The notes: generated by a model not told the origin, from the sequence alone. 64,000 bases of DNA from Acidobacteriaceae bacterium (GCA_003151435.1 PLXP01000144.1:7422-71421); one strand, 5' to 3'; counted from the first letter of the stretch, positions 17,159 to 29,073 are shown. Program-made: numbers and translations.

Positions 17159-18283
17159 GTGACAGTGAGCAAAGCAGACTACTACGAAGTGCTGGGCGTT
17201 TCCCGCGAGGCCAGTGACCAGGAGTTGAAGAGCGCCTACCGCAAGCTGGCGCTCAAGCATCATCCTGACCGCAACCCCGGCGATCACGCCGCGGAAGAGC
17301 GTTTCAAACAGGCAAGCGAGGCCTACCAGGTGTTGTGCGACGCAGACAAACGCGCCGCGTACGACCGCTATGGCCACGCCGGCGTTGGTGCGGCCAGCCA
17401 GGGATACGGGGGCCCCTTCGCGGGCAGCGTCGATATCGGCGACATCTTCGGCGACCTTTTCGGCGAGATGTTCAACGTGGGCGCCCAGCAGCAGCGCGGC
17501 TCCCGCCAGCATCGCGGCGATGACCTCCGCGTCGACCTGTCCATCGAGTTTGAAGACGCCATCTTTGGCGCCGAGACCGAAGTCAAGGTTCGCCGACTTG
17601 AGACCTGCCCCACGTGCAGCGGCCGCGGCAGCGCCTCCGGCCAGGGACCCACCGTTTGCCGGCAGTGCCAAGGACGCGGCCAACTCCGCTATCAGCAGGG
17701 CTTTTTCTCCGTGGCGCGTACGTGCAACGCCTGCGGAGGCACCGGCTCCATCATCGGTGATCCCTGCTCAACCTGCCGGGGAGAGACGCGCGTTTCAAAG
17801 GAACTCAAGCTCAACGTCAAGGTGCCCCCGGGCGTCGAAGACGGCACCCGCATCCGCTATGCGGGCGAGGGCGATGCGGGCCGCTCAGGCGGTCCCAAGG
17901 GCGACCTGTACGTGGTCCTGTCCATCCAGCCGCATGACCTTTTTGAGCGCGATGGCCACGATCTGCGCTGTGTCATTCCCATCAGCTTTCCGCAGGCGGC
18001 GTTGGGGGCGGAGATCGAGATCCCCGGTATCGACGGCCCCGTCAACCTCAAGATTCCCGAGGGCACCCAGAGCGGCAAGGAGTTGCGCGTGCGCGGCCGC
18101 GGCGTTCCCTACCTTAGCAGCAAGGGACACGGCGACCTGGTGGTGAAGGTGCTGGTGCAGGTGCCGCGCAAGCTGTCCCGTGCCCAGCGCGAACTGGTGG
18201 CCAAGCTGTCTGACATGCTGAGCGTGGACAACAAGCCCACCTCACCTTCCCTGATCGACAAGATGAAAGACCTGTTCAACTAA
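17159..18283 (+). CDS. dnaJ: Molecular chaperone DnaJ
   Basis: GTG start. J-domain DYYEVLGV...[13 protein letters not shown], a G/F region and four CxxCxGxG zinc-finger repeats ([32 protein letters not shown]). Confidence 0.95.
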
Positions 18284-18619
18284 GCTTCGTGCGATTGACC
18301 GGCAATCTGCCCGGAACTTTCAGAACTCCAGTAGCGGCTCGATGAGTGCATTGGGCTGTTGGCGACAGTTGAGGACTGGTGCCTATCACATTCCTTAATA
18401 CTGGCCGACATTCCGTTACTTATCCGACCGCGAAAATTCAAAGTTGCAAAGCGGCAGGCGAGCTGATCGCTCCAAACGGATTATGACAGAAGGCTTTTCT
18501 TCCGAAAAGCTCCCACTTTCAGTGCGAACATTCCGTTGGCATCGCAATCTACCTCAGGCGAAGTACACTTGTTGTGATTCTGGGTCGCAACGGAGATTCC
18601 AGTTGGAGGGCTTTTCATC

Positions 18620-20059
18620 ATGAGCCCATCAGAGATTTCTCGCCGCACGGTGCTGCGTGGCGCTGCGCTGGGCGCGGCGGTGCTTGCCTCTGGCGCCGAC
18701 AAGCTGCTGGGCGAATCGGTCCAGGCTCCGCCCAACATCGTTTTCATCCTTGCTGACGATATGGGTTACGCCGATATTTCCTGCTACGGACGACCCGACC
18801 TCCACACTCCGAACATCGATAGTCTTGCATCGCGCGGAATGCGCTTTCTGCAGGCCTACGCCAACTCCGCGGTCTGCTCGGCCACGCGCACCGCTCTGAT
18901 TACCGGACGCTATCAGGACCGCCTCGATGTTGGTCTCGACGAACCGCTCGTCGGACGCGACACCGGTTTGCCTCCGAGCCATCCCACGCTGCCTTCGCTC
19001 CTGCGCAAGGCCGGATATGGGACCACCCTTGTGGGCAAGTGGCATCTGGGCTTGCTGCCCAAATATGGCCCGCTGCATAGCGGCTACGACCACTTTTATG
19101 GTTTTCGCGGCGGCGCGGTCGACTACTTTACACACTCCAACGACCTGTGGGACGAAGACATCAAGGTCCAACAGGTTGGCTACCTGACTGATTTACTCGG
19201 CAACCACGCCGTCAATGTCATCAACGGCTACGCCAAGGCCGGAAAGCCCTTCCTGTTGAGCTTGCACTTTAATGCTCCTCACTGGCCGTGGGAGGGGCCG
19301 GGAGATGAGGCCGAGTCCCGGCGGCTCAATGGCCATGGGCTCGTCGATTTTGACGGCGGTTCGCAAGGGACCTTTGAGCGCATGATCGAGGACCTCGATC
19401 TCCAGGTTGGGCGAGTGATCGATGCGCTTCACGCTGGCGGCATCATCGACAACACAATCGTTATTTTCACGAGCGACAATGGAGGCGAGCGCTTCGCCGA
19501 TACCTGGCCATTTACAGGCCGGAAGACAGAGTTGCTTGAAGGCGGTTTGCGGATTCCGGCCATCATTTCGTGGCCCGCCCGCATTGGCAAGGGCCAAACC
19601 ACCAATCAGGTGGCGATCAGCATGGATTGGCTGCCAACGCTTCTTGCTGCTGCCAGCACAGGGCCCGATGCCGCGTATTCACCCGACGGCATTAACCTGC
19701 TGCCATTTCTATCCGAAGGCGCCACGCCGGTTCCGCGCAAGCTCTTTTGGCGCTACAAAGCCAATGCCCAGCACGCGACGCGCGATGGCGATATGAAGTA
19801 TCTCAAGATTCTAGATAATACATTCCTGTTCAACGTCGTTGAGGATCCTATGGAGCGCGCCAATCTGAAGGAACGCATGCCCGACGTTTACAGCCGCCTG
19901 ATCGCGGAATGGGCCGCTTGGAATGCCGCCATGCTGCCGGAGATCGATGAGAGCTACACCGGCAACTTCACCGGGGCCGAACTCGCCGATCACATCGGTA
20001 CGCCAGAAGCCAGCCACAAAGCCGATAACCCACCTTCCGTGACGGCTCCTGATCGCTGA
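18620..20059 (+). CDS. Tat-exported arylsulfatase-family hydrolase
   Basis: Twin-arginine signal SRRTVLRGAALGAAVLASGA. NIVFILADDMGYADI and the formylglycine site CSATRTALITGRY (C-x-A-x-R variant). Confidence 0.85.
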   Translation: MSPSEISRRTVLRGAALGAAVLASGADKLLGESVQAPPNIVFILADDMGYADISCYGRPDLHTPNIDSLASRGMRFLQAYANSAVCSATRTALITGRYQDRLDVGLDEPLVGRDTGLPPSHPTLPSLLRKAGYGTTLVGKWHLGLLPKYGPLHSGYDHFYGFRGGAVDYFTHSNDLWDEDIKVQQVGYLTDLLGNHAVNVINGYAKAGKPFLLSLHFNAPHWPWEGPGDEAESRRLNGHGLVDFDGGSQGTFERMIEDLDLQVGRVIDALHAGGIIDNTIVIFTSDNGGERFADTWPFTGRKTELLEGGLRIPAIISWPARIGKGQTTNQVAISMDWLPTLLAAASTGPDAAYSPDGINLLPFLSEGATPVPRKLFWRYKANAQHATRDGDMKYLKILDNTFLFNVVEDPMERANLKERMPDVYSRLIAEWAAWNAAMLPEIDESYTGNFTGAELADHIGTPEASHKADNPPSVTAPDR

Positions 20060-20368
20060 GACTGCCGATCCCTCGCCCGCACGCTGCCACATAGTGCGTT
20101 CGACCGCGCGCTGAAGGATGAGTTCTGTGGTTCCGATATGCTAATTCTCCGTGATTTACTCTCCAACGGCAGGATCAGTCCTGAAAAACGCCCTTCACTT
20201 CAGTCATCGCTTGGCGGTTCCGCAGAGGATTGTCAACGAGCGCATCATCTCCGACTCCCCCAGAATGAATGCAGTCGTCAATCGCCAACGAGGGCAGGCT
20301 CTTTCGAGTTTCGGGGGCGAGTCTCAATCAGCACTATGGGTAGATGCGATGGGTCAACCCAAACTCAC

Positions 20369-22378
20369 TTACTGGCACTCCGCCTCGAACGGCAGGAACA
20401 ACGCAAACGCCGTTCCGCTGCTGCCTTGCCGCTGCGAACTGCGCACCCTGAGCGTGCCGTGATGCCGGTTGACAATCTCCTGGCACACCCACAGCCCCAA
20501 TCCATTCCCCGCGGTGCCTTTTGTCGTGAAGAAGGCATCGAAGATATTCTTCCGCGCCGCCGGGCTGATCCCTGTGCCGGTGTCGCCGATGGTAAGAACC
20601 AGCCCCGCCTTGCCCGTCGCCCAGTTTCTTCCGCTGCGGCTGCGGATCAACAATCGTCCGCCAAACGGCATCGCCTCCAGCGCGTTGCCCACCAGGTTGT
20701 TCAGCACCTGGCGCACGTCGCCCTGAAAGCATACCGCCGGCTTGTCGGTCCTGAATCGCTTCTCCACCTTCACTCGCGCGTTGCGAAGGCGCCCCTCGTA
20801 AATGCTCATCACGGTTGAGTACAGGTCGGCGCCGCTTGCGGCCTGCGGCTTCGAGGCCTGCTTGTGGAAGCGCAGCGTCTGGTTGGCGATGATGGAGACG
20901 CGGCGAATCTCCTGGTCCGCAAGGTCGAGATATTCCCGGGCTTTGGGAGTCTCGGCCTGACGCGCCAGGTAGATCAGGTTCATCACCGACTCCAGCGGAT
21001 TGTTAATCTCATGCGCGATGGACGATGCAAGCCGCCCCACGGCAGCCAGCTTTTCACTTTTCAGCAACGCCGATTCGGCTCGCCTGAATTCAGTAATGTC
21101 CCGTCCTTCGGGAACCAGAAAGAGCACTCTTCCGTCTGTGTCCCGAACCGGCGTGAGCGAGAAATCGAAGATCCGCGTCTCTCCCGAAGGCCGGTTGAGC
21201 GATGCTTCATAGCGCACAAACTCCCCCGCGGCGGCGCGTGCCATCGCCGCCCGCAACGCCTCGGGTGCGCCCGGCGTGCCCGCGAACCAGGGCGAATCGG
21301 CCAGGCCCTTGCCTACCACCTCCGTGCGGTCAGTTCCGGAAAACTCCAATGAGGCGCGGTTGCAATCGACGATCACCCCATCCGGCGTCAGCAGACCGAT
21401 GTACCCCAGGCTGGTGGTGTACATGGCCTTGAGCCGCGCTGCGCTCTCGCGCAACGCCTCGGCTTCCGCTCGCTGCCTTGTAATATCGCGAAACACGAGC
21501 ACGATCCCCGCAAGCGCCCCGTTGTCATCCAGAACCGGCGCTCCGCTGTCGTCGATTGCGGTCTCACTTCCGTCCTTGCGAATCAGGATTGTATGGTTGA
21601 CGAGTTCCACCGCGGTTCCAAGCCGACGCACCTTTTCCGCTGGGCTCTCCACCGGTTCGCGCGTGCCCTCATCCACAGTGTGGAAGACCTGCTGGAGCGG
21701 ATCGCCTTTGGCTTCTTCTAATCGCCAGCCGGTGAGGTTCTCGGCCACGCGGTTCATCTGAACCACGCGGGCCTCGGAGTCCGTCACAATCACCGCATCG
21801 CCGATGCTCTGCAAGACGCGCGTGGCGCGGGCTTCGCTTTCACGAAGATCGCGCGTGGCCATTACCTCGCCCGTCACATCCTGCATTAAGCCGAAGAGGC
21901 CTGCGATCTTGCCCTCCTCAAAGACGGGGCTGAACGTATAGTCGAGGGAAGAATCCTGCACCCCGCTGCCGGAATCGATCGGCACCTGCAGCTTTCGGTG
22001 CGAAAACATCGTCCCCGTGGCGTAAGCCTCCTCCAGCAGCGGCCCCACAATGGGCCACGATTCCTTGTAGACCTCCCGGGCAGGCTTCCCTAGGGCCTCG
22101 GGGTGCCGTTTCCCCGGTATCGGCCGATAGCCATCGTTGTAAATCAGAATCATGTCCGGACCCCAGAGGGTTCTTGCCGGGGCCGGCGAGCACAAGGTGA
22201 GGTTCACGATGGCGACCAGTTCCCGGGACCAGCCTTCAATGGGGCCCACGGGCGTGGAACTCCAGTCATGACTGCGGACCAGCTCCGCCATCTCCCCCAC
22301 GCCCACAATGCGGGCTGCCGCAGTCTCGCACGAGCCGGACTGCGGGGGCGATGGTTTTGCTGATCTGAACAAGCTCAT
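20369..22378 (-). CDS. Multi-PAS sensor histidine kinase
   Basis: GGAGG SD. Several PAS/PAC modules, the HisKA H-box SSIAHEINNPLESV, and HATPase N/G boxes (LNNLVGNALEAM, IGDTGTGI, GNGLGLWV). Confidence 0.85.
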   Translation of the reverse strand: MSLFRSAKPSPPQSGSCETAAARIVGVGEMAELVRSHDWSSTPVGPIEGWSRELVAIVNLTLCSPAPARTLWGPDMILIYNDGYRPIPGKRHPEALGKPAREVYKESWPIVGPLLEEAYATGTMFSHRKLQVPIDSGSGVQDSSLDYTFSPVFEEGKIAGLFGLMQDVTGEVMATRDLRESEARATRVLQSIGDAVIVTDSEARVVQMNRVAENLTGWRLEEAKGDPLQQVFHTVDEGTREPVESPAEKVRRLGTAVELVNHTILIRKDGSETAIDDSGAPVLDDNGALAGIVLVFRDITRQRAEAEALRESAARLKAMYTTSLGYIGLLTPDGVIVDCNRASLEFSGTDRTEVVGKGLADSPWFAGTPGAPEALRAAMARAAAGEFVRYEASLNRPSGETRIFDFSLTPVRDTDGRVLFLVPEGRDITEFRRAESALLKSEKLAAVGRLASSIAHEINNPLESVMNLIYLARQAETPKAREYLDLADQEIRRVSIIANQTLRFHKQASKPQAASGADLYSTVMSIYEGRLRNARVKVEKRFRTDKPAVCFQGDVRQVLNNLVGNALEAMPFGGRLLIRSRSGRNWATGKAGLVLTIGDTGTGISPAARKNIFDAFFTTKGTAGNGLGLWVCQEIVNRHHGTLRVRSSQRQGSSGTAFALFLPFEAECQ

Positions 22379-22691
22379 CCTGTAATTCCTCCGTGATCAA
22401 AAAATGCAGACGAGCTTTAACCAACTTCTTCGCGATAAAAGCACCGCCTCCCCATCGAAATAACCAATCCCGCGGGAGGAACGACGCGCATTCGCCTTCA
22501 ATTCGTATTGGATGCTTGATTCCGCGAACACTATGCCGCGCCGTAAGATGAATCGCGGCGAACCTCCGCGGCCAGCATGGGGGCCGGCAGCCCCCGTCGC
22601 CGCATAGCACACCCCCGAAGCCATTTACCGCATCCAAATAACATGCGCCCCCCGGGCCAAATCCACTGAAAGCCATTCTCCAAGGAGCTGA

Positions 22692-23762
22692 ATGACAACG
22701 GCTTATATCAATCGCATCGCGACAGCAGTCCCGCGGCATGATGTGCACCGGCCGTTTGTCCAGTTTGCCGAAGGCATGCTGCCCGAGGGCACGGTGCGCA
22801 ATCTCTTTCGGCGCATGGCTCGTATGTCGGCCATCGAACACCGCTACTCATTCCTGCAGCCCATCTCCACGGACGACTCGACGTGGCGCGATGCGGAAAA
22901 CCTCTATGTGACCGGAAATTTTCCTCCCACCTCGCGCCGCATGCAGGCCTTTGAGAACTTTGCTCCGCTGCTGGCGCAATGCGCGCTCGACAAACTTGCC
23001 CTCACGGATGAGGAACGCCGCTCCGTCACGCACGTCATCGTCACCTCCTGCACCGGCCTCTACGCTCCGGGTCTCGACTTCGACATCGTCAAGCACCTTG
23101 GCCTCAGCACCTCCGTCGAACGCACCATGATCGGCTTCATGGGATGCTACGCCGCCATCAACGCATTGAAGTCAGCGCATCACATCGTGCGCTCGGAACC
23201 CCAAGCCAAGGTTCTCGTCCTGAATCTGGAACTCTGCACGCTCCACCTGCAGGAAACAAAAGATCTGGAACAGATGCTCTCGTTCCTGCTCTTTGCGGAT
23301 GGTTGCGCGGCGTCCCTGATCAGCGCGCAACCGCAAGGGTTGGGCATCGACAGTTTTCTTGCCATCCAGCTTCCCGACACAAGCCATCTCATTACGTGGC
23401 GCATTCGCGAGATGGGATTCGACATGCAACTCTCCGGCCAGGTTCCCGCCGAGATTCGTCGCACCCTGAAGGATTCGGGCTCTCAAGTCACGCGCGGAAA
23501 AGATCCGCAGGCCATCGATCTCTGGGCCGTGCACCCGGGAGGCCGTTCCATCCTCGATGCCGTGGAGCAGGGCCTTGGTTTGCCGGGCGATGCGCTCCGC
23601 TACTCGCGCGACATCCTCGCGCGTTACGGCAATATGTCCTCCGCCACCGTGATGTTTGTCCTGCAGCAAGTGCTGGAGCACGCACAGGCACGGCAGCAAG
23701 GCTGTGCCATGTCGTTTGGCCCCGGAGTCACGGCGGAGACCATGCTCTTCCATGCCGCCTAG
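22692..23762 (+). CDS. Type III polyketide synthase (chalcone-synthase superfamily)
   Basis: AAGGAG SD. Cys-His-Asn triad contexts VTSCTGLYAPG, WAVHPGGRSILD and YGNMSSATVMF, plus FADGCAA. Confidence 0.9.
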   Translation: MTTAYINRIATAVPRHDVHRPFVQFAEGMLPEGTVRNLFRRMARMSAIEHRYSFLQPISTDDSTWRDAENLYVTGNFPPTSRRMQAFENFAPLLAQCALDKLALTDEERRSVTHVIVTSCTGLYAPGLDFDIVKHLGLSTSVERTMIGFMGCYAAINALKSAHHIVRSEPQAKVLVLNLELCTLHLQETKDLEQMLSFLLFADGCAASLISAQPQGLGIDSFLAIQLPDTSHLITWRIREMGFDMQLSGQVPAEIRRTLKDSGSQVTRGKDPQAIDLWAVHPGGRSILDAVEQGLGLPGDALRYSRDILARYGNMSSATVMFVLQQVLEHAQARQQGCAMSFGPGVTAETMLFHAA

Positions 23763-24474
23763 CACGCCCGATTTTCGCCGCCGCGCGCAACTCTCCGAAC
23801 TCATGGACGGGCCTTGCACTCGCGAGCAGTTGCGCGCCTGCCTCCGCGATCTCGCCAGGGTCAACCGCCTGGTGTTGGCCTATCGGCCTCTGCTCGCGTG
23901 GCTCAACAGCTTTCGATTCTCATCATCCGCGGAGCCCCTTCGCATCCTCGACGTGGGCTCCGGTTATGGCGACGGGTTGCGCCGCATCGAACGTTGGGCA
24001 CACAAGCGCGGCATCGCCGTGGAACTCACAGGGCTCGACATGAACCCCGACTCCACCGCCATCGCCGCCGAGGCCGGGCCTCCAGAATGTCGAATTCAGT
24101 GGGTCAGCGGCGACGTGTTTTCGTACTCCCCACAACGGTCCCCTCATCTCGTCGTCAGTTCGCTCTTCACGCATCATCTGGCCGACGCTGACGTGGTCCG
24201 CTTCCTGCGATGGATGGAGCAGAACACTGAAATGGGATGGTTCATCAACGACCTTTCGCGAGCCCCCATTCCGTACCACCTCTTCCGCATCTTCTCAAAG
24301 CTCGCGGGGTTTCATCCCTTCGTGCAACACGACGGCCCCGTCTCCATCGCCCGCTCGTTCGTGCCGGAAGATTGGCGCGGCCTGTGCGCTGCGGCAGGGC
24401 TAAACGATAGCGACGTTTCCATCGTCGGATTCAAGCCCGGACGACTCTGCGTTAGCCGGAGAAAACTGCAATGA
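23752..24474 (+). CDS. Class I SAM-dependent methyltransferase
   Basis: ATG 23752 overlaps the PKS stop (ATGCCGCCTAG). Motif I is ILDVGSGYGDGL. Confidence 0.75.
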   Translation: MPPSTPDFRRRAQLSELMDGPCTREQLRACLRDLARVNRLVLAYRPLLAWLNSFRFSSSAEPLRILDVGSGYGDGLRRIERWAHKRGIAVELTGLDMNPDSTAIAAEAGPPECRIQWVSGDVFSYSPQRSPHLVVSSLFTHHLADADVVRFLRWMEQNTEMGWFINDLSRAPIPYHLFRIFSKLAGFHPFVQHDGPVSIARSFVPEDWRGLCAAAGLNDSDVSIVGFKPGRLCVSRRKLQ

Positions 24475-25640
24475 CCGCGCCGAGGTCGATGCCCATGCCG
24501 AAGCCGAAGCCGAAGCCCAATCCCAATGTTGATAATCTCGTCATCGGCGGCGGTCTCGCCGGCGCCATGGCAGCCATGCGCCTTGCCGCCGCGGGCCGTG
24601 ACGTGGCGCTGCTGGAGAAAGAGCCGGCCGCACATCACAAGGTGTGCGGAGAGTTTCTGAGCCCCGAAGCGGTTGCGTATCTGCACCAGGCAGGCGTCGA
24701 CCCCGTCCGTCTCGGTGCTGTGCCCATCCGCTTTCTGCGCCTCTCCGCGAAAAGCAGGGTCGTGGAAACCGCATTGCCCTTCACCGCGCTCTCGCTCTCG
24801 CGTTGCGTGCTCGATGAAGCTCTTCTCGCGCGTGCCGCAGAGCAAGGATGCGACGTGCGTCGCGGCGTTTCTGTCGAGAAACTCACGCAACGCGCAGACA
24901 CATGGGTCGCAAAATTGTCCGATGAAAGTTTGCAGAGCGCCCACACGGCCTTCCTCGCCACGGGAAAGCACGATCTGCGCGGGTGGACTCGCATGCCCGG
25001 CAAGCACAACGATCTCGTCGGCTTCAAACTGCATTGGCGATTGGCGACGGCGCAGACCGAGGCGCTGCGCCAGTTCATGGAACTCTTCCTCTTCTCCGGT
25101 GGTTACGGAGGGCTTTCGCTCGTCGAAAACGATACCGCCAATCTCTGCCTCGTGGTGCGGCGTTCCACGCTGCGCAAACTGCGCGGATGGAACGAACTGC
25201 TGGCAGCGCTGCGGCTTGAGAACCGCCACATGCAGCAGCGCCTTGAAGGTGCGCAGCCGCTGTGGCAGCGGCCGCTGGCCATCTCTCCCATTCCCTACGG
25301 CTACCTGGCGACCAGGCCGCACGGCCTGTGGTGTGTCGGCGACCAGGCCGCTGTCATTCCCTCATTCACCGGCGATGGCATGTCCATCGCGCTGCATTCG
25401 GGCGCGCTCGCCGCACAAATGCATCTGGCCGGCGACACATCGGACCAGTATCATCGCGCGCTTCAATCGCAGTTGAAGTCCGGCATGGGTCTGGCGACAT
25501 GGCTTTCTCGCGCGATGGTCACGCGCGCCGCCCGCGAACTCGTTCCTTTGGGTGTCTCGTTGTTTCCCAGGGCAATCAAGAGCATTGCCACGTCGACGCG
25601 CATTCCGTCGCACGCGCTTCTTGCCGCATCGCCGCAATAG
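24471..25640 (+). CDS. FAD-dependent oxidoreductase/monooxygenase (geranylgeranyl-reductase-like)
   Basis: ATGA start/stop overlap with the methyltransferase. Dinucleotide fold VIGGGLAGAMAAMRLAAAGRDVALLEKE, GEFLSP, and GDQAAVIPSFTGDGMSIAL (GD motif). Confidence 0.75.
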   Translation: MTAPRSMPMPKPKPKPNPNVDNLVIGGGLAGAMAAMRLAAAGRDVALLEKEPAAHHKVCGEFLSPEAVAYLHQAGVDPVRLGAVPIRFLRLSAKSRVVETALPFTALSLSRCVLDEALLARAAEQGCDVRRGVSVEKLTQRADTWVAKLSDESLQSAHTAFLATGKHDLRGWTRMPGKHNDLVGFKLHWRLATAQTEALRQFMELFLFSGGYGGLSLVENDTANLCLVVRRSTLRKLRGWNELLAALRLENRHMQQRLEGAQPLWQRPLAISPIPYGYLATRPHGLWCVGDQAAVIPSFTGDGMSIALHSGALAAQMHLAGDTSDQYHRALQSQLKSGMGLATWLSRAMVTRAARELVPLGVSLFPRAIKSIATSTRIPSHALLAASPQ

Positions 25641-25654
25641 GGCCAGACAAAAAA

Positions 25655-27109
25655 TCACACTGCGAGGAAGGCGACGATTCCCACCGCTGCACCGATCACC
25701 AGGCTCATTTTGTCGGTCAGGGCAAATACCACGGGGTCTTCGTTGAGTTCACCGCGCGAGGCCAGCAGCCATACCCGGCAAAGCCAAAGCACCATCAACG
25801 GCAAGATCAGCCAGAGCCATTGCGTGTGTCGATAGAGAATCGTCACGTCGTGGCTCCCAATGTAGTTGGCGAACACCACCACCGCTGCAAACGCGCTCGC
25901 GGTTCCGAAGGTTCGTATCTGTTCGATGTCAGCCACCAGGTACCCGCGGCCGTTATTTGGCTTCGAACCGAGGATGCGCATGTTCTCCAACTCGGCAAAG
26001 CGTTTGACAATGGCCAGCGACAGAAACAGAAAGATCGAGAACCCGCTCAGCCAATGCGAAATCGGCGTGTGCGTTGCCGCGCCGCCTCCCAGCAAACGCA
26101 GTGTATACAGTCCCGAGAGCACCAGCACATCCACCAGGGCAATGCGTTTCAGATAGGTGGAGTATGCCATGGTCGTGGCCAGGTAGAGCAGCAGCCAGCC
26201 TCCGAAGCGAAAGGGAAGATAGTGCGTTCCGCAGATCGCCAGCGCCAGGAAAACGGCAACAATGCCAAACCCTGTGAGTGCGGAGAGATCTCCTGACGCA
26301 AAGGGACGCTGCCGCTTTTGTGCATGACGCCGGTCCGCCTCAATGTCGAACATGTCGTTCACAATGTAAGCGGCTGAAGCGCTCAGGCTGAAACAGCAAA
26401 AGGCCATAAACGAGTGCAGCACTTTGCCGTGCGTGAACCGGTGCGCCAGCAGCATCGGAGCAAACACCAGCAGATTCTTCGCCCATTGATGCACGCGCAC
26501 GGCCTTCAACATGGTCCTCAGAGAATGAGGCCGTTCTTCAAACACGCGCGTTGGCACAATGCCGCGCGATCGCAGCCCTCTGCGCAGCGCCGCGCTCGGA
26601 TTAGCCACCATCGCCTCGGATGCGTGTGCCAGCAGCGGTAGATCGGGGCTGGCGTTGCCAATGTAATCAAAAGCCTCGGAGCCGAGATGAGCGCGCAACC
26701 CGTCCAGCTTGCGCTTTCCGGTCAGGTTGGTGGCTCCATCGCTGCCCAGCACCCCGCTGAAGATTCCAAGATGGTCGGCGACACGGCGCGCAAGGCGCAG
26801 GTCCGCGCCCGTCGCCAGGTAGATTGCTCGCCCTCGCGCCCGCTCCTGCTGCAAAAACTGCAGCAGCTTGCGGTTGTAGGGCAGATGCGCCACATCCAGC
26901 GATACTGACTCCGTGACGTATGCCTTGAAAGCCGCCTTGCCGCGAAAAAGCCGTCCGCAAAGCGCCGGCAAACGCCCCGGCCGGGTCCGCGCAAGCACCA
27001 GCAGCGAATCGACCAGCGTATCCGACTTGACGAGTGTGCCATCCAGATCGACGCAAAGTGGACGCAGCACTGCGGCGGGAGCTTCCGGCTCAAGAATGGT
27101 AGTTGCCAA
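25655..27109 (-). CDS. HAD-phosphatase / UbiA-family (decaprenyl-phosphate phosphoribosyltransferase-like) fusion protein
   Basis: TTG start with GAGGTGA SD. N-terminal HAD motif I CVDLDGTLVKSD. The C-terminal polytopic domain carries NDMFDIEADRRHAQKRQRPFASG. Confidence 0.8.
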   Translation of the reverse strand: MATTILEPEAPAAVLRPLCVDLDGTLVKSDTLVDSLLVLARTRPGRLPALCGRLFRGKAAFKAYVTESVSLDVAHLPYNRKLLQFLQQERARGRAIYLATGADLRLARRVADHLGIFSGVLGSDGATNLTGKRKLDGLRAHLGSEAFDYIGNASPDLPLLAHASEAMVANPSAALRRGLRSRGIVPTRVFEERPHSLRTMLKAVRVHQWAKNLLVFAPMLLAHRFTHGKVLHSFMAFCCFSLSASAAYIVNDMFDIEADRRHAQKRQRPFASGDLSALTGFGIVAVFLALAICGTHYLPFRFGGWLLLYLATTMAYSTYLKRIALVDVLVLSGLYTLRLLGGGAATHTPISHWLSGFSIFLFLSLAIVKRFAELENMRILGSKPNNGRGYLVADIEQIRTFGTASAFAAVVVFANYIGSHDVTILYRHTQWLWLILPLMVLWLCRVWLLASRGELNEDPVVFALTDKMSLVIGAAVGIVAFLAV

Positions 27110-27356
27110 CCGCTCACCTCATCGAGGATCGCTGACTAGCCCCAATGCACGTTTGCTGTGGGAAGTAACCGATCGCTCAATTGGACTGTTTTCCAGGGAA
27201 GGCCGCCCGTCACATCCTGACTGCAGGAAATGAACCGGCCCTCTGGGTGCAGATACACTCGCTGCCCACTGGTCAGGAACGTTTTTAGTATACAGTCGCC
27301 TCTAAATCCTTGAAAACCGTGCGGAATAAGGGGACAGGGGGAGAGAGTTGGAAACA

Positions 27357-27375
27357 CGCGGCCAGGGCGGCCGCG
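27357..27375 (-). terminator. Hairpin immediately 3' of tRNA-Ala
   Basis: On the minus strand: CGCGGCC-GCCCT-GGCCGCG followed by UGUUUCC. A 7-bp GC stem lies 7 nt after the CCA end. Confidence 0.4.
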
Positions 27376-27382
27376 CAAATTT

Positions 27383-27458
27383 TGGTGGAGCTGAGCGGGA
27401 TCGAACCGCTGGCCTCCTCGTTGCGAACGAGGCGCTCTCCCAGCTGAGCTACAGCCCC
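27383..27458 (-). tRNA. tRNA-Ala (anticodon CGC)
   Basis: The reverse complement GGGGCTGTAGCTCAGCTGGGAGAGCGCCTCGTTCGCAACGAGGAGGCCAGCGGTTCGATCCCGCTCAGCTCCACCA folds as a 76-nt cloverleaf. It has the G3:U70 Ala identity pair, anticodon loop TTCGCAA and an encoded CCA. Confidence 0.95.
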
Positions 27459-27596
27459 ACGACTTCCTTATCTTATCAGCGAGTAGAGAATCGCGGAAGG
27501 GGCGGAGTCACGGCCCGGCACGAAATACCACCGGTCGGTTTAGGCCAGGGGCGTCGGGACTGCACCCCGACCTTCCACGCCCCCGGCCCTCCCCAC

Positions 27597-28847
27597 CTAA
27601 AGCTGGTTCATGTTGGCCAGGAACTCGGCGTTATTGCGTACCTTCTCGAGACGGCTGATCAACAACTCCATAGCCTCGACGGGCGACAACGGATTGAGTA
27701 CCTTGCGCAGAATCCAGATGCGCTGCAATTCTTCCTTCGGAATCAGCAGCTCTTCCTTGCGGGTGCCCGACCGCTGGATGTCGATGGCCGGGAACACCCG
27801 CTTGTCCACCAGCTTGCGGTCCAGAATGATTTCCATGTTGCCGGTGCCCTTGAACTCTTCAAAGATGACTTCGTCCATGCGCGAACCGGTATCCACCAGC
27901 GCCGTTGCAATAATTGTCAGAGACCCGCCCTCTTCAATGTTGCGGGCCGCGCCAAAGAAGCGCTTGGGGCGCTGCAAAGCGTTCGAATCCACGCCTCCCG
28001 ACAGCACCTTGCCCGACGGGGGCACGATGGTGTTGTAGGCGCGCGCCAGGCGGGTGATCGAATCCAGCAGAATCACCACGTCGCGCTTGTGCTCCACCAG
28101 TCGCTTGGCCTTTTCGATCACCATCTCCGCCACCTGTACGTGGCGAGCCGCCGGCTCGTCAAAGGTGGAACTGATCACTTCGCCCTTCACCGACCGCTGC
28201 ATGTCCGTAACTTCTTCAGGCCGCTCGTCGATCAGCAGCACAATCAGCACGACGTCGGGGTGATTGGTGGAGATAGAGTTGGCGAGCGACTGCAACAGCA
28301 TGGTCTTGCCGGTGCGGGGCGGGGCGACGATGAGGCCGCGCTGGCCCTTGCCCACTGGGGTCAGCAGATCCATCACCCGGCCACTGGTGGCCTCGCGTAC
28401 GGTCTCCAGCTTGATGCGTTCCTGCGGATAGAGCGGCGTCAGGTTGTCAAACAGAATCTTGTTGCGCGTCTCTTCGGGCGACTCGAAGTTGATGGCTTCA
28501 ATCTTGACCAGCGCGAAATATTTTTCGCCTTCATGCGGCGGGCGCACGTTACCGCTGATCGAGTCGCCGGTCTTCAAATCGAACTTGCGAATCTGCGAGG
28601 GCGAAACGTAGATGTCGTCGGGGCCGGGCAGATAGTTGTAATCGGGCGAGCGCAGAAAGCCGTAGCCGTCGGGCAATATTTCAAGCACGCCCTCGGCAAA
28701 GATGTGGCCCTCTTTTTCGCTCTGGGCCTGGAGAATCTTGAAAATAAGATCCTGCTTGCGAAGACCGCTGGCGCCCGGAATCTCCAGGGTGCGCGCGATG
28801 CGGCTTAGTTCCGTGATGTTTTTCTCTTTGAGTTCAGCGATGGTCAT
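27597..28847 (-). CDS. rho: Transcription termination factor Rho
   Basis: [23 protein letters not shown] (Rho N-terminal domain), RNA-binding [17 protein letters not shown], Walker A APPRTGKT and [14 protein letters not shown] 28847 follows AGGTGA; the track starts at a TTG at 28859. Confidence 0.95.
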
Positions 28848-29073
28848 GTTCACCTGCAACGGGGCGGGATGGTAGTGAGGGAGAGTCGGAGAGGGGAATG
28901 TGCTCCGGGAAGTAAGGCAGGAGTTCGTTACGGCAGTTGACGCGGCCGCGCCTTGCAGCTTATCCCGAACTCAGTCAGTGGAGTATGAAAACACCGGGAA
29001 GAGCGGCCCCCTTGCACAGGAAAGCCGCCAGAAACCGTGACTTACTCAACTATACGCTTTTCGGGAAACCCGG

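Follow-up and report, generated by a model that had tools for sequence, protein, structure and literature searches.

A type III polyketide synthase, methyltransferase and flavoprotein operon of an Acidobacteriaceae bacterium resembles the hid and planctomycetal alkylresorcinol cassettes

Precedents and layout of the operon

Small operons that join a type III polyketide synthase (PKS) to a methyltransferase (MT) and an oxidoreductase (OR) are known from several groups of bacteria. The hidABC cluster of Cyanobium sp. LEGE 06113, which yields hierridins B and C, has been tied to hierridin B, and its HidA, as a recombinant enzyme, O-methylates pentadecylresorcinol (PMC6836626). The product of this cluster is a 2,4-dimethoxy-6-alkylphenol, and ring hydroxylation by HidB is a proposal in the hierridin work. 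PKSs from the planctomycetal mtr-fdo-t3pks operon (Milke et al. 2024; Gimesia, Rhodopirellula and Stieleria) gave pentadecyl- and heptadecylresorcinols (C15/C17) in C. glutamicum (PMC10896814). The srsABC genes of Streptomyces griseus and pkqABC of Mycobacterium smegmatis share a PKS-MT-oxidoreductase order, and their alkylresorcinol is methylated and oxidised; ars of Azotobacter vinelandii, bpsAB of Bacillus subtilis, ftp of Myxococcus xanthus and agqABCD of Actinoplanes missouriensis are likewise type III PKS phenolic-lipid systems. Here we describe a PKS-MT-flavoprotein operon in a stretch of 64,000 nucleotides, analysed as a whole and called the window below, from an Acidobacteriaceae bacterium (GCA_003151435.1, PLXP01000144.1:7422-71421), a soil organism akin to Terracidiphilus. 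It probably represents a self-contained, co-translated cassette of the hid/planctomycetal type that makes a tailored long-chain 5-alkylresorcinol, a phenolic lipid.

The three genes lie on the plus strand. The PKS gene (22692-23762; 356 amino acids, Pfam Chal_sti_synt_N/C) is preceded by a Shine-Dalgarno-like AAGGAG (22682-22687, plus strand), read from the sequence 4 nucleotides (nt) 5' of its start codon. It overlaps the methyltransferase gene (23752-24474; 240 amino acids from its ATG, Pfam Methyltransf_25, PF13649) by 11 nt, ATGCCGCCTAG at 23752-23762, and the methyltransferase stop in turn overlaps the start of a gene for a flavin adenine dinucleotide (FAD)-dependent oxidoreductase (24471-25640; 389 amino acids, Pfam FAD_binding_3) in the ATGA at 24471-24474. 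A first-pass annotation of this DNA had proposed three open reading frames (ORFs) with both start/stop overlaps, forming a tightly packed type III PKS/methyltransferase/flavoprotein operon; the domains agree with this, and the coordinates and both overlaps could be read directly. The overlapping stop and start codons would keep the three proteins co-expressed.

We scanned genomes with the methyltransferase and collected 80 Acidobacteriaceae loci, 64 of which retain the 11-nt overlap with its ATG. In a family alignment of 48 methyltransferases, homologues start at the same place as ATG 23752, and E16 and D19, which stand near the next ATG (Met18; the analysis took them to lie upstream of it), are invariant or nearly so. 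ATG 23752 is thus the likely methyltransferase start. At the flavoprotein N-terminus, a low-complexity stretch, MTAPRSMPMPKPKPKPNPN (24471-24536), precedes the Rossmann fold, and alternative in-frame ATGs occur at 24489 and 24495; the ATGA overlap is therefore likely, not certain. A scan for promoters and terminators found no sigma-70 consensus promoter in 22300-25800, and terminator-like sites were no commoner than in shuffled sequence. Within the window, each of the three genes occurs once.

The first-pass annotation had taken the operon for the same trio as SrsA, SrsB and SrsC. This equation holds for the gene order, PKS-MT-oxidoreductase, and for the proposed logic of methylating and oxidising an alkylresorcinol, but it fails for the methyltransferase, which is of the class I Rossmann type and predicted to be soluble, whereas the methyltransferase of srs-type clusters is annotated as an isoprenylcysteine carboxyl methyltransferase (ICMT) (PMC6669644, PMC8779670). 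The window methyltransferase and SrsB would accordingly be analogous, not homologous. BpsB, too, is ICMT-like. The matches examined on actinobacterial plasmids stand in contexts that are either PKS18-like (desaturase-PKS-ABC, PKS-MMPL) or RppA-like (PKS-cupin-P450). An arsABCD-type system, in which the type I fatty acid synthases ArsA and ArsD provide the starter for paired type III PKSs, was also rejected, as the window has a single type III PKS and no ORF of more than 1029 amino acids, and so no type I synthase. Among the annotated ORFs beside the trio there was no acyl-AMP ligase, acyl carrier protein or aromatic UbiA prenyltransferase.

Both hidABC and the planctomycetal operon are closer precedents than srs. 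The former comprises the same three enzyme classes in one small operon, and the order hidC>hidA>hidB of some cyanobacteria is that of the window (PMC8086630); its canonical order is MT-OR-PKS, unlike the window, and the host phylum differs. For the planctomycetal layout, all three window proteins are homologous to those of a Paludisphaera trio. Relative to this trio, the window combines a Cys-His-Asn triad plus Trp in the PKS with a homologous methyltransferase and a homologous FAD enzyme, encoded by adjacent, co-conserved genes. An NF004851-type methyltransferase and a geranylgeranyl reductase (GGR)-superfamily flavoenzyme occur in both. The gene order differs from that of the window, and the Paludisphaera operon lies outside the experimentally tested set. 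The operon is therefore the acidobacterial case of a known, multi-phylum cassette of alkylresorcinol type rather than a new kind of system.

Catalytic residues and family relationships of the three enzymes

The best solved relative of the window PKS is M. tuberculosis PKS18 (PDB 1TED; E 4e-46, 33% identity), a producer of long-chain alpha-pyrones with which it shares the catalytic triad. The nucleophile, Cys152 (GFMGCYAA, 23145-23147), aligns with PKS18 Cys175, and the triad is completed by His281 (WAVHPGG, 23532-23534) and Asn314 (YGNMSS, 23631-23633), all on the plus strand. The histidine and asparagine contexts had been assigned correctly before, but the cysteine had been placed at codon 23049-23051 (plus strand), which encodes Cys120 (VTSCTG). 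This residue is non-catalytic and aligns with PKS18 Ser143, which lines the acyl tunnel, and window Cys182 corresponds to Cys205 of the same tunnel (tunnel residues as set out in PMC6274091). Thousands of PKS homologues were found at E<=1e-20, of which the best 120 share 76-97% identity and the nearest public sequence is 97% identical, so chance is no concern. PKS18-like homologues occur in a desaturase-PKS-ABC transporter context, unlike the window PKS.

Two residues of the window PKS, Trp236 (23397-23399, plus strand) and Met245, form the pair tied to aldol cyclisation. All trio-linked PKSs in the alignment keep both; PKS18 carries Leu266 and Cys275 at these positions. In the Azotobacter enzymes, ArsB Trp281 versus ArsC Gly284 decides between aldol and lactone closure via Met293, nine residues on, and the substitutions ArsB W281G and ArsC G284W swap the product type (PMC6274091); the same Trp has been reported in SrsA, FtpA and PKS10/11 (PMC5916927). 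In the window PKS, too, the Met stands nine residues after the Trp. In PDB searches with the window PKS and with that of Paludisphaera, ArsC and PKS11 were not among the top alignments; we therefore infer the equivalence of Trp236 with the ArsB Trp281 cyclisation switch from this spacing and from the published statements rather than from a direct ArsC alignment.

In a neighbour-joining (NJ) tree, the window PKS falls in a trio-linked clade beside PKS18-like enzymes. Clustering with type III PKSs that do not make lipids would have spoken for another product. DpgA (27% identity), a PhlD-annotated enzyme (25%) and RppA-like enzymes (27-28%) stand on separate branches, and the window PKS scores 107 bits against the DpgA model, compared with a cut-off of 425. 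Membership of the DpgA, RppA and PhlD types was rejected on these grounds.

The methyltransferase has the motif I ILDVGSGYGDG (23944-23976, plus strand) that had been ascribed to it. It matches only class I Pfam families (PF13649, PF08241, PF13489 and PF08242), with no Pfam match to the ICMT/PEMT family. Its score of 130.7 bits against NCBIfam NF004851 (PRK06202) falls short of the cut-off, 243; the corresponding operon enzymes of Deinococcus and Paludisphaera score 334 (above that cut-off) and 232 bits. From these matches, the enzyme is predicted to be a class I Rossmann S-adenosylmethionine-dependent methyltransferase of an NF004851-like family. This family is large (1776 representative clusters at E<=1e-10); E16 and His141-His142 are invariant in its alignment, and several further polar residues are conserved. 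Sequence searches of the PDB gave weak matches only. NF004851 is an equivalog family that NCBI names "hypothetical protein", and its members adjoin a type III PKS in nearly all loci examined.

For the flavoprotein, both the GGGLAGA dinucleotide fold and the GD motif proposed earlier are present. The GxGxxG lies at 24546-24563 and the GD at 25338-25343; between them are Cys59, in KVCGE (24645-24647), and GGYGG (residues 210-214), all plus strand. The KVCGE cysteine and the GGYxG, GD and GDG motifs are invariant in the family alignment. The best family match of the window enzyme is TIGR02032, at 97.4 bits against a cut-off of 158.8, with weaker matches to QhpG and MenJ; the Paludisphaera flavoenzyme likewise finds TIGR02032 best (116 bits). 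More generally, the flavoenzymes of the window, Paludisphaera, Hymenobacter and Indioceanicola are related to the GGR superfamily and to the QhpG, LodB and GoxB hydroxylases, below every curated cut-off. The canonical geranylgeranyl reductase motif is YxWxFP, and the window enzyme reads GGYGGLSLV in the motif region. Given this and its score, we rejected membership of TIGR02032 itself; the enzyme is related to that family but is not a member.

Sequence searches of the PDB again gave only weak matches for the flavoenzyme. Its AlphaFold2 model (predicted local distance difference test, pLDDT, 87) retrieved in Foldseek first the GGR structure 3OZ2 and then phenol/pyrrole halogenases and class A hydroxylases, with TM scores of about 0.7 and identities of at most 20%. 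As reductases, halogenases and hydroxylases match about equally well, the chemistry cannot be read from the structure. The best argument for ring hydroxylation is indirect: in Deinococcus radiodurans, the slot after the PKS and methyltransferase genes is filled by an aromatic hydroxylase of the UbiH/PHBH type.

Conservation of the trio and its genomic surroundings

In nearly all of the 80 Acidobacteriaceae loci, the PKS gene lies directly 5' of the methyltransferase gene, and in about 58-61 of them a flavoprotein gene follows directly 3'. The genes flanking the trio vary (a LacI-type regulator, an acyltransferase-like gene, dnaN, a malate-dehydrogenase-like gene and others). Because these neighbours differ so widely among loci, the trio appears to be a self-contained functional unit. 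The locus itself is found again, at 94-98% identity, on metagenome contigs L094 and L161.

We reached other phyla with a profile of distant methyltransferases and by searching annotated plasmids, and found trios in four phyla besides Acidobacteria. All three proteins have homologues in the trios of Indioceanicola, Paracoccus, Hymenobacter, Cnuella and Paludisphaera; besides the planctomycete, Alphaproteobacteria and Bacteroidota are represented. The order PKS-MT-FAD recurs in Indioceanicola, with overlapping genes (55/45/43% identity to the window PKS, MT and FAD proteins), and on a Paracoccus plasmid (54/50/45%). It is FAD-PKS-MT in Hymenobacter and MT-FAD-PKS on the Paludisphaera borealis plasmid PALBO1, whose proteins share 35/34/29% identity with those of the window (E 5e-60, 6e-21 and 5e-19). 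In Deinococcus, only the PKS and the methyltransferase match window proteins. The first-pass annotation had suggested a check of gene-neighbourhood conservation. In the window the three genes stand side by side in one orientation, and they tend to be conserved together: the PKS and methyltransferase genes in nearly all of the 80 loci, the FAD gene with them in about three quarters, and trios in four other phyla.

Several of these loci depart from the three-gene form. No flavoprotein gene lies directly downstream of the PKS and methyltransferase genes in 19 of the 80 loci (L003, L012, L018, L019, L020, L023, L029, L038 and 11 more within L003-L082), a two-gene form that parallels the hidCA variant of cyanobacteria. 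Cnuella takakiae has four genes in the order UbiA-PKS-MT-FAD (L085, 3960-7860), and the UbiA stop overlaps the PKS start. This UbiA protein finds only weak prenyltransferase model matches, and the arrangement points to prenylation of the phenolic lipid, for which the agq cluster of Actinoplanes offers a parallel. In Deinococcus radiodurans (L087, 3872-9585), the genes PKS-MT-FAD-glycosyltransferase-PLD all overlap or nearly so. The UbiH/PHBH-type hydroxylase here is a non-orthologous replacement of the GGR-like flavoenzyme, and the pathway may end in a glycosylated phenolic lipid.

Downstream of the operon, on the minus strand, are a HAD-UbiA fusion gene (25655-27109), a tRNA-Ala(CGC) gene (27383-27458) and rho (27597-28859). 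Upstream, and divergent from the operon, a gene on the minus strand (20369-22378) encodes a cytoplasmic PAS-PAS-HisKA-HATPase sensor kinase (Pfam domains), beyond which lies a gene for a sulfatase with a TAT signal (18620-20059). The interval between dnaJ and rho (17159-28859 in the window; loci L001, L015, L019, L065, L072 and L096-L173) is a variable region, which holds, depending on the lineage, the trio, the PAS kinase, the TAT-signal sulfatase, a PNPOx-like gene, or HAD-UbiA alone.

To the HAD-UbiA gene we devoted a separate scan of metagenomes, which gave 80 loci. Trio genes occur in 4 of these 80; no trio gene is present in 33 of the 34 HAD-UbiA loci with dnaJ or in 32 of the 33 with rho. 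Conversely, HAD-UbiA is present in 1 of the 80 trio loci. The trio lies on one side of HAD-UbiA in the window and on the other side in L072 and L158. These counts indicate that HAD-UbiA belongs to a rho-HAD-UbiA-dnaJ block conserved in many Acidobacteriaceae, and that a few lineages have had the trio inserted there. HAD-UbiA is not part of the cassette, in keeping with the earlier remark that it is foreign to the classical srs and ars loci.

The PAS kinase lies 5' of the PKS gene in 10 of 82 trio loci, all of them in the dnaJ-rho context, and it is absent from the trio-less HAD-UbiA loci of the dnaJ-rho block as well as from most other trio loci. It is possible that the kinase regulates the trio, but the link may reflect one inherited insertion. 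PAS-domain sensor kinases adjoin the trio in three phyla: on the Paludisphaera plasmid (L086, 1706-4917), in Hymenobacter (L083, 1-1444) and in the window. This may be coincidence, such kinases being common, or a recurrent regulatory pairing.

The likely product and its alternatives

Taken together, Trp236 and Met245, the NJ tree and the planctomycetal precedent favour a modified long-chain alkylresorcinol-type lipid as the most likely product, in line with what had been suggested at first. By homology, the PKS uses Cys152, His281 and Asn314. It would load a fatty acyl thioester from the cell pool, which is presumably mostly iso-C15, C16 and iso-C17 in these bacteria, and would extend it with three malonyl-CoA units. 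Because Trp236 and Met245 would narrow the cavity, the resulting tetraketide is expected to close by C2-C7 aldol condensation, with decarboxylation, to an alkylresorcinol and not a pyrone. The class I methyltransferase would then methylate the ring, on oxygen if the precedent of HidA holds and on carbon if that of the Gimesia enzyme does. In what is the weakest step of the scheme, the GGR-like flavoenzyme may add a hydroxyl group to the ring; the outcome would be a methoxy-alkyl-hydroquinone, the corresponding benzoquinone or a hierridin-like phenol. The product may serve as a membrane or envelope lipid, as an antimicrobial or as a redox carrier.

Several observations weigh against this scheme. 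The NJ bootstrap for the trio-linked clade is just 72%. Trp236 is not specific to alkylresorcinols, as Trp is also found at this position in DpgA and in one Rhizobium type III PKS. The resorcinol-type ring of DpgA is itself formed by aldol closure, so that Trp236 speaks for aldol chemistry and not for lipids or alkylresorcinols as such. The window proteins share no more than 29-35% identity with the planctomycetal trio, and the proposed link between the window and hid runs through one Paludisphaera operon and the literature, not through Hid sequences. The flavoenzyme keeps a GGR-type Cys motif, and its modelled structure appears as near to reductases and halogenases as to hydroxylases. When the Gimesia fdo gene was co-expressed in C. 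glutamicum, the only such test, no hydroxylated product was obtained, and the partner methyltransferase appeared to C-methylate in the same host. Finally, as 19 of the 80 Acidobacteriaceae loci lack the FAD gene directly downstream, the gene must be dispensable for some product.

These points lead to the alternative that carries most weight after the favoured scheme, though we hold it to be distinctly less probable: the flavoenzyme could be a GGR-type reductase that saturates the alkyl chain or reduces a quinone, or could perform other flavin chemistry such as halogenation, in which case the product would not be a hydroxyquinol or quinone. That the best family match is the GGR superfamily, that the KVCGE cysteine is invariant in a motif we take to be GGR-like, and that 3OZ2 is the top structural match all agree with a reductase. 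The halogenases that follow 3OZ2 include the phloroglucinol halogenase PltM, the enzyme that chlorinates hierridin C is not known, and the result with the Gimesia homologue fits either chemistry. However, the canonical YxWxFP of the reductases is replaced by GYxG[LI], and no WxWxIP of the halogenase type is visible. The related QhpG, LodB and GoxB families are aromatic hydroxylases, a PHBH/UbiH-type hydroxylase occupies the slot in Deinococcus, and hierridin B needs a third ring oxygen for which HidB is the sole candidate in its cluster. We consider it improbable, and more so than a reductase or halogenase, that the product is an alkyl-methoxy-benzoquinone, a "polyketide quinone" that would act as a second membrane electron carrier beside menaquinone-8 (MK-8) at low oxygen and be switched by the PAS kinase. 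The actinobacterial pkqABC and srs PKS-MT-oxidoreductase operons do give alkylbenzoquinones that carry electrons in spores and in hypoxic biofilms (PMC9927152), within the dnaJ-rho context the kinase goes with the trio, the trios of Paludisphaera and Hymenobacter have PAS kinases beside them as well, and relatives of the bacterium inhabit the redox gradients of peat. Yet the methyltransferase is not homologous to the one annotated in srs-type clusters, MK-8 is the sole quinone of cultured relatives (PMC12935467), the kinase is absent from most trio loci and may mark one inherited insertion, and a PKS knockout of S. maiorica had no phenotype. If such a quinone were made, its oxidation would fall to an uncharacterised subfamily of GGR-like flavoenzymes that is widespread across phyla.

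Two further readings concern the ring and its possible prenylation. The PKS could be an alkylpyrone synthase like PKS18, ArsC or BpsA, with the methyltransferase making pyrone methyl ethers. PKS18 is the closest solved structure, many close homologues are annotated "alpha-pyrone synthase" by the Joint Genome Institute, and pyrone by-products are frequent with type III PKSs. Against this, the window enzyme has Trp236 and Met245 in place of the Leu and Cys of PKS18, single substitutions at the Trp position of ArsB and ArsC swap the product type, and the tested operon-linked planctomycetal PKSs gave resorcinols, which makes a dedicated pyrone synthase unlikely and places it behind the quinone carrier. 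Least credible of all is a role for the adjoining HAD-UbiA protein in prenylating the phenolic lipid or changing it in some other way, as the UbiA-type AgqD does in Actinoplanes. A UbiA gene occurs in some type III PKS clusters (Cnuella, an srs-like cluster and Raphidiopsis), and the HAD-UbiA stop lies 14 nt from that of the FAD gene. The gene is, however, convergent with the trio rather than co-oriented; its product matches NF006088 (583 bits), with a UbiA half that resembles decaprenyl-phosphate phosphoribosyltransferases and not aromatic prenyltransferases, and has no BLAST similarity to the Cnuella UbiA. The synteny counts given above largely refute a place for it in the pathway, and we rejected it as a member.

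An alkylresorcinol-type cassette thus remains the reading we prefer. No product of an acidobacterial type III PKS is reported in the literature searched, in agreement with the first-pass annotation. Type III PKS clusters are a routine entry in antiSMASH output for Acidobacteria, and they are among the classes of biosynthetic gene cluster (BGC) expressed in peatland where Acidobacteriota dominate BGC transcription. The cassette is abundant, and Acidobacteriaceae dominate acidic soils and peat. The hid-type assignment provides a concrete and inexpensive hypothesis about a class of lipids so far unreported from Acidobacteria. It further draws attention to two families without assigned function beside a type III PKS, the GGR-like flavoenzyme and the NF004851 methyltransferase, the latter an annotation gap that could be closed.

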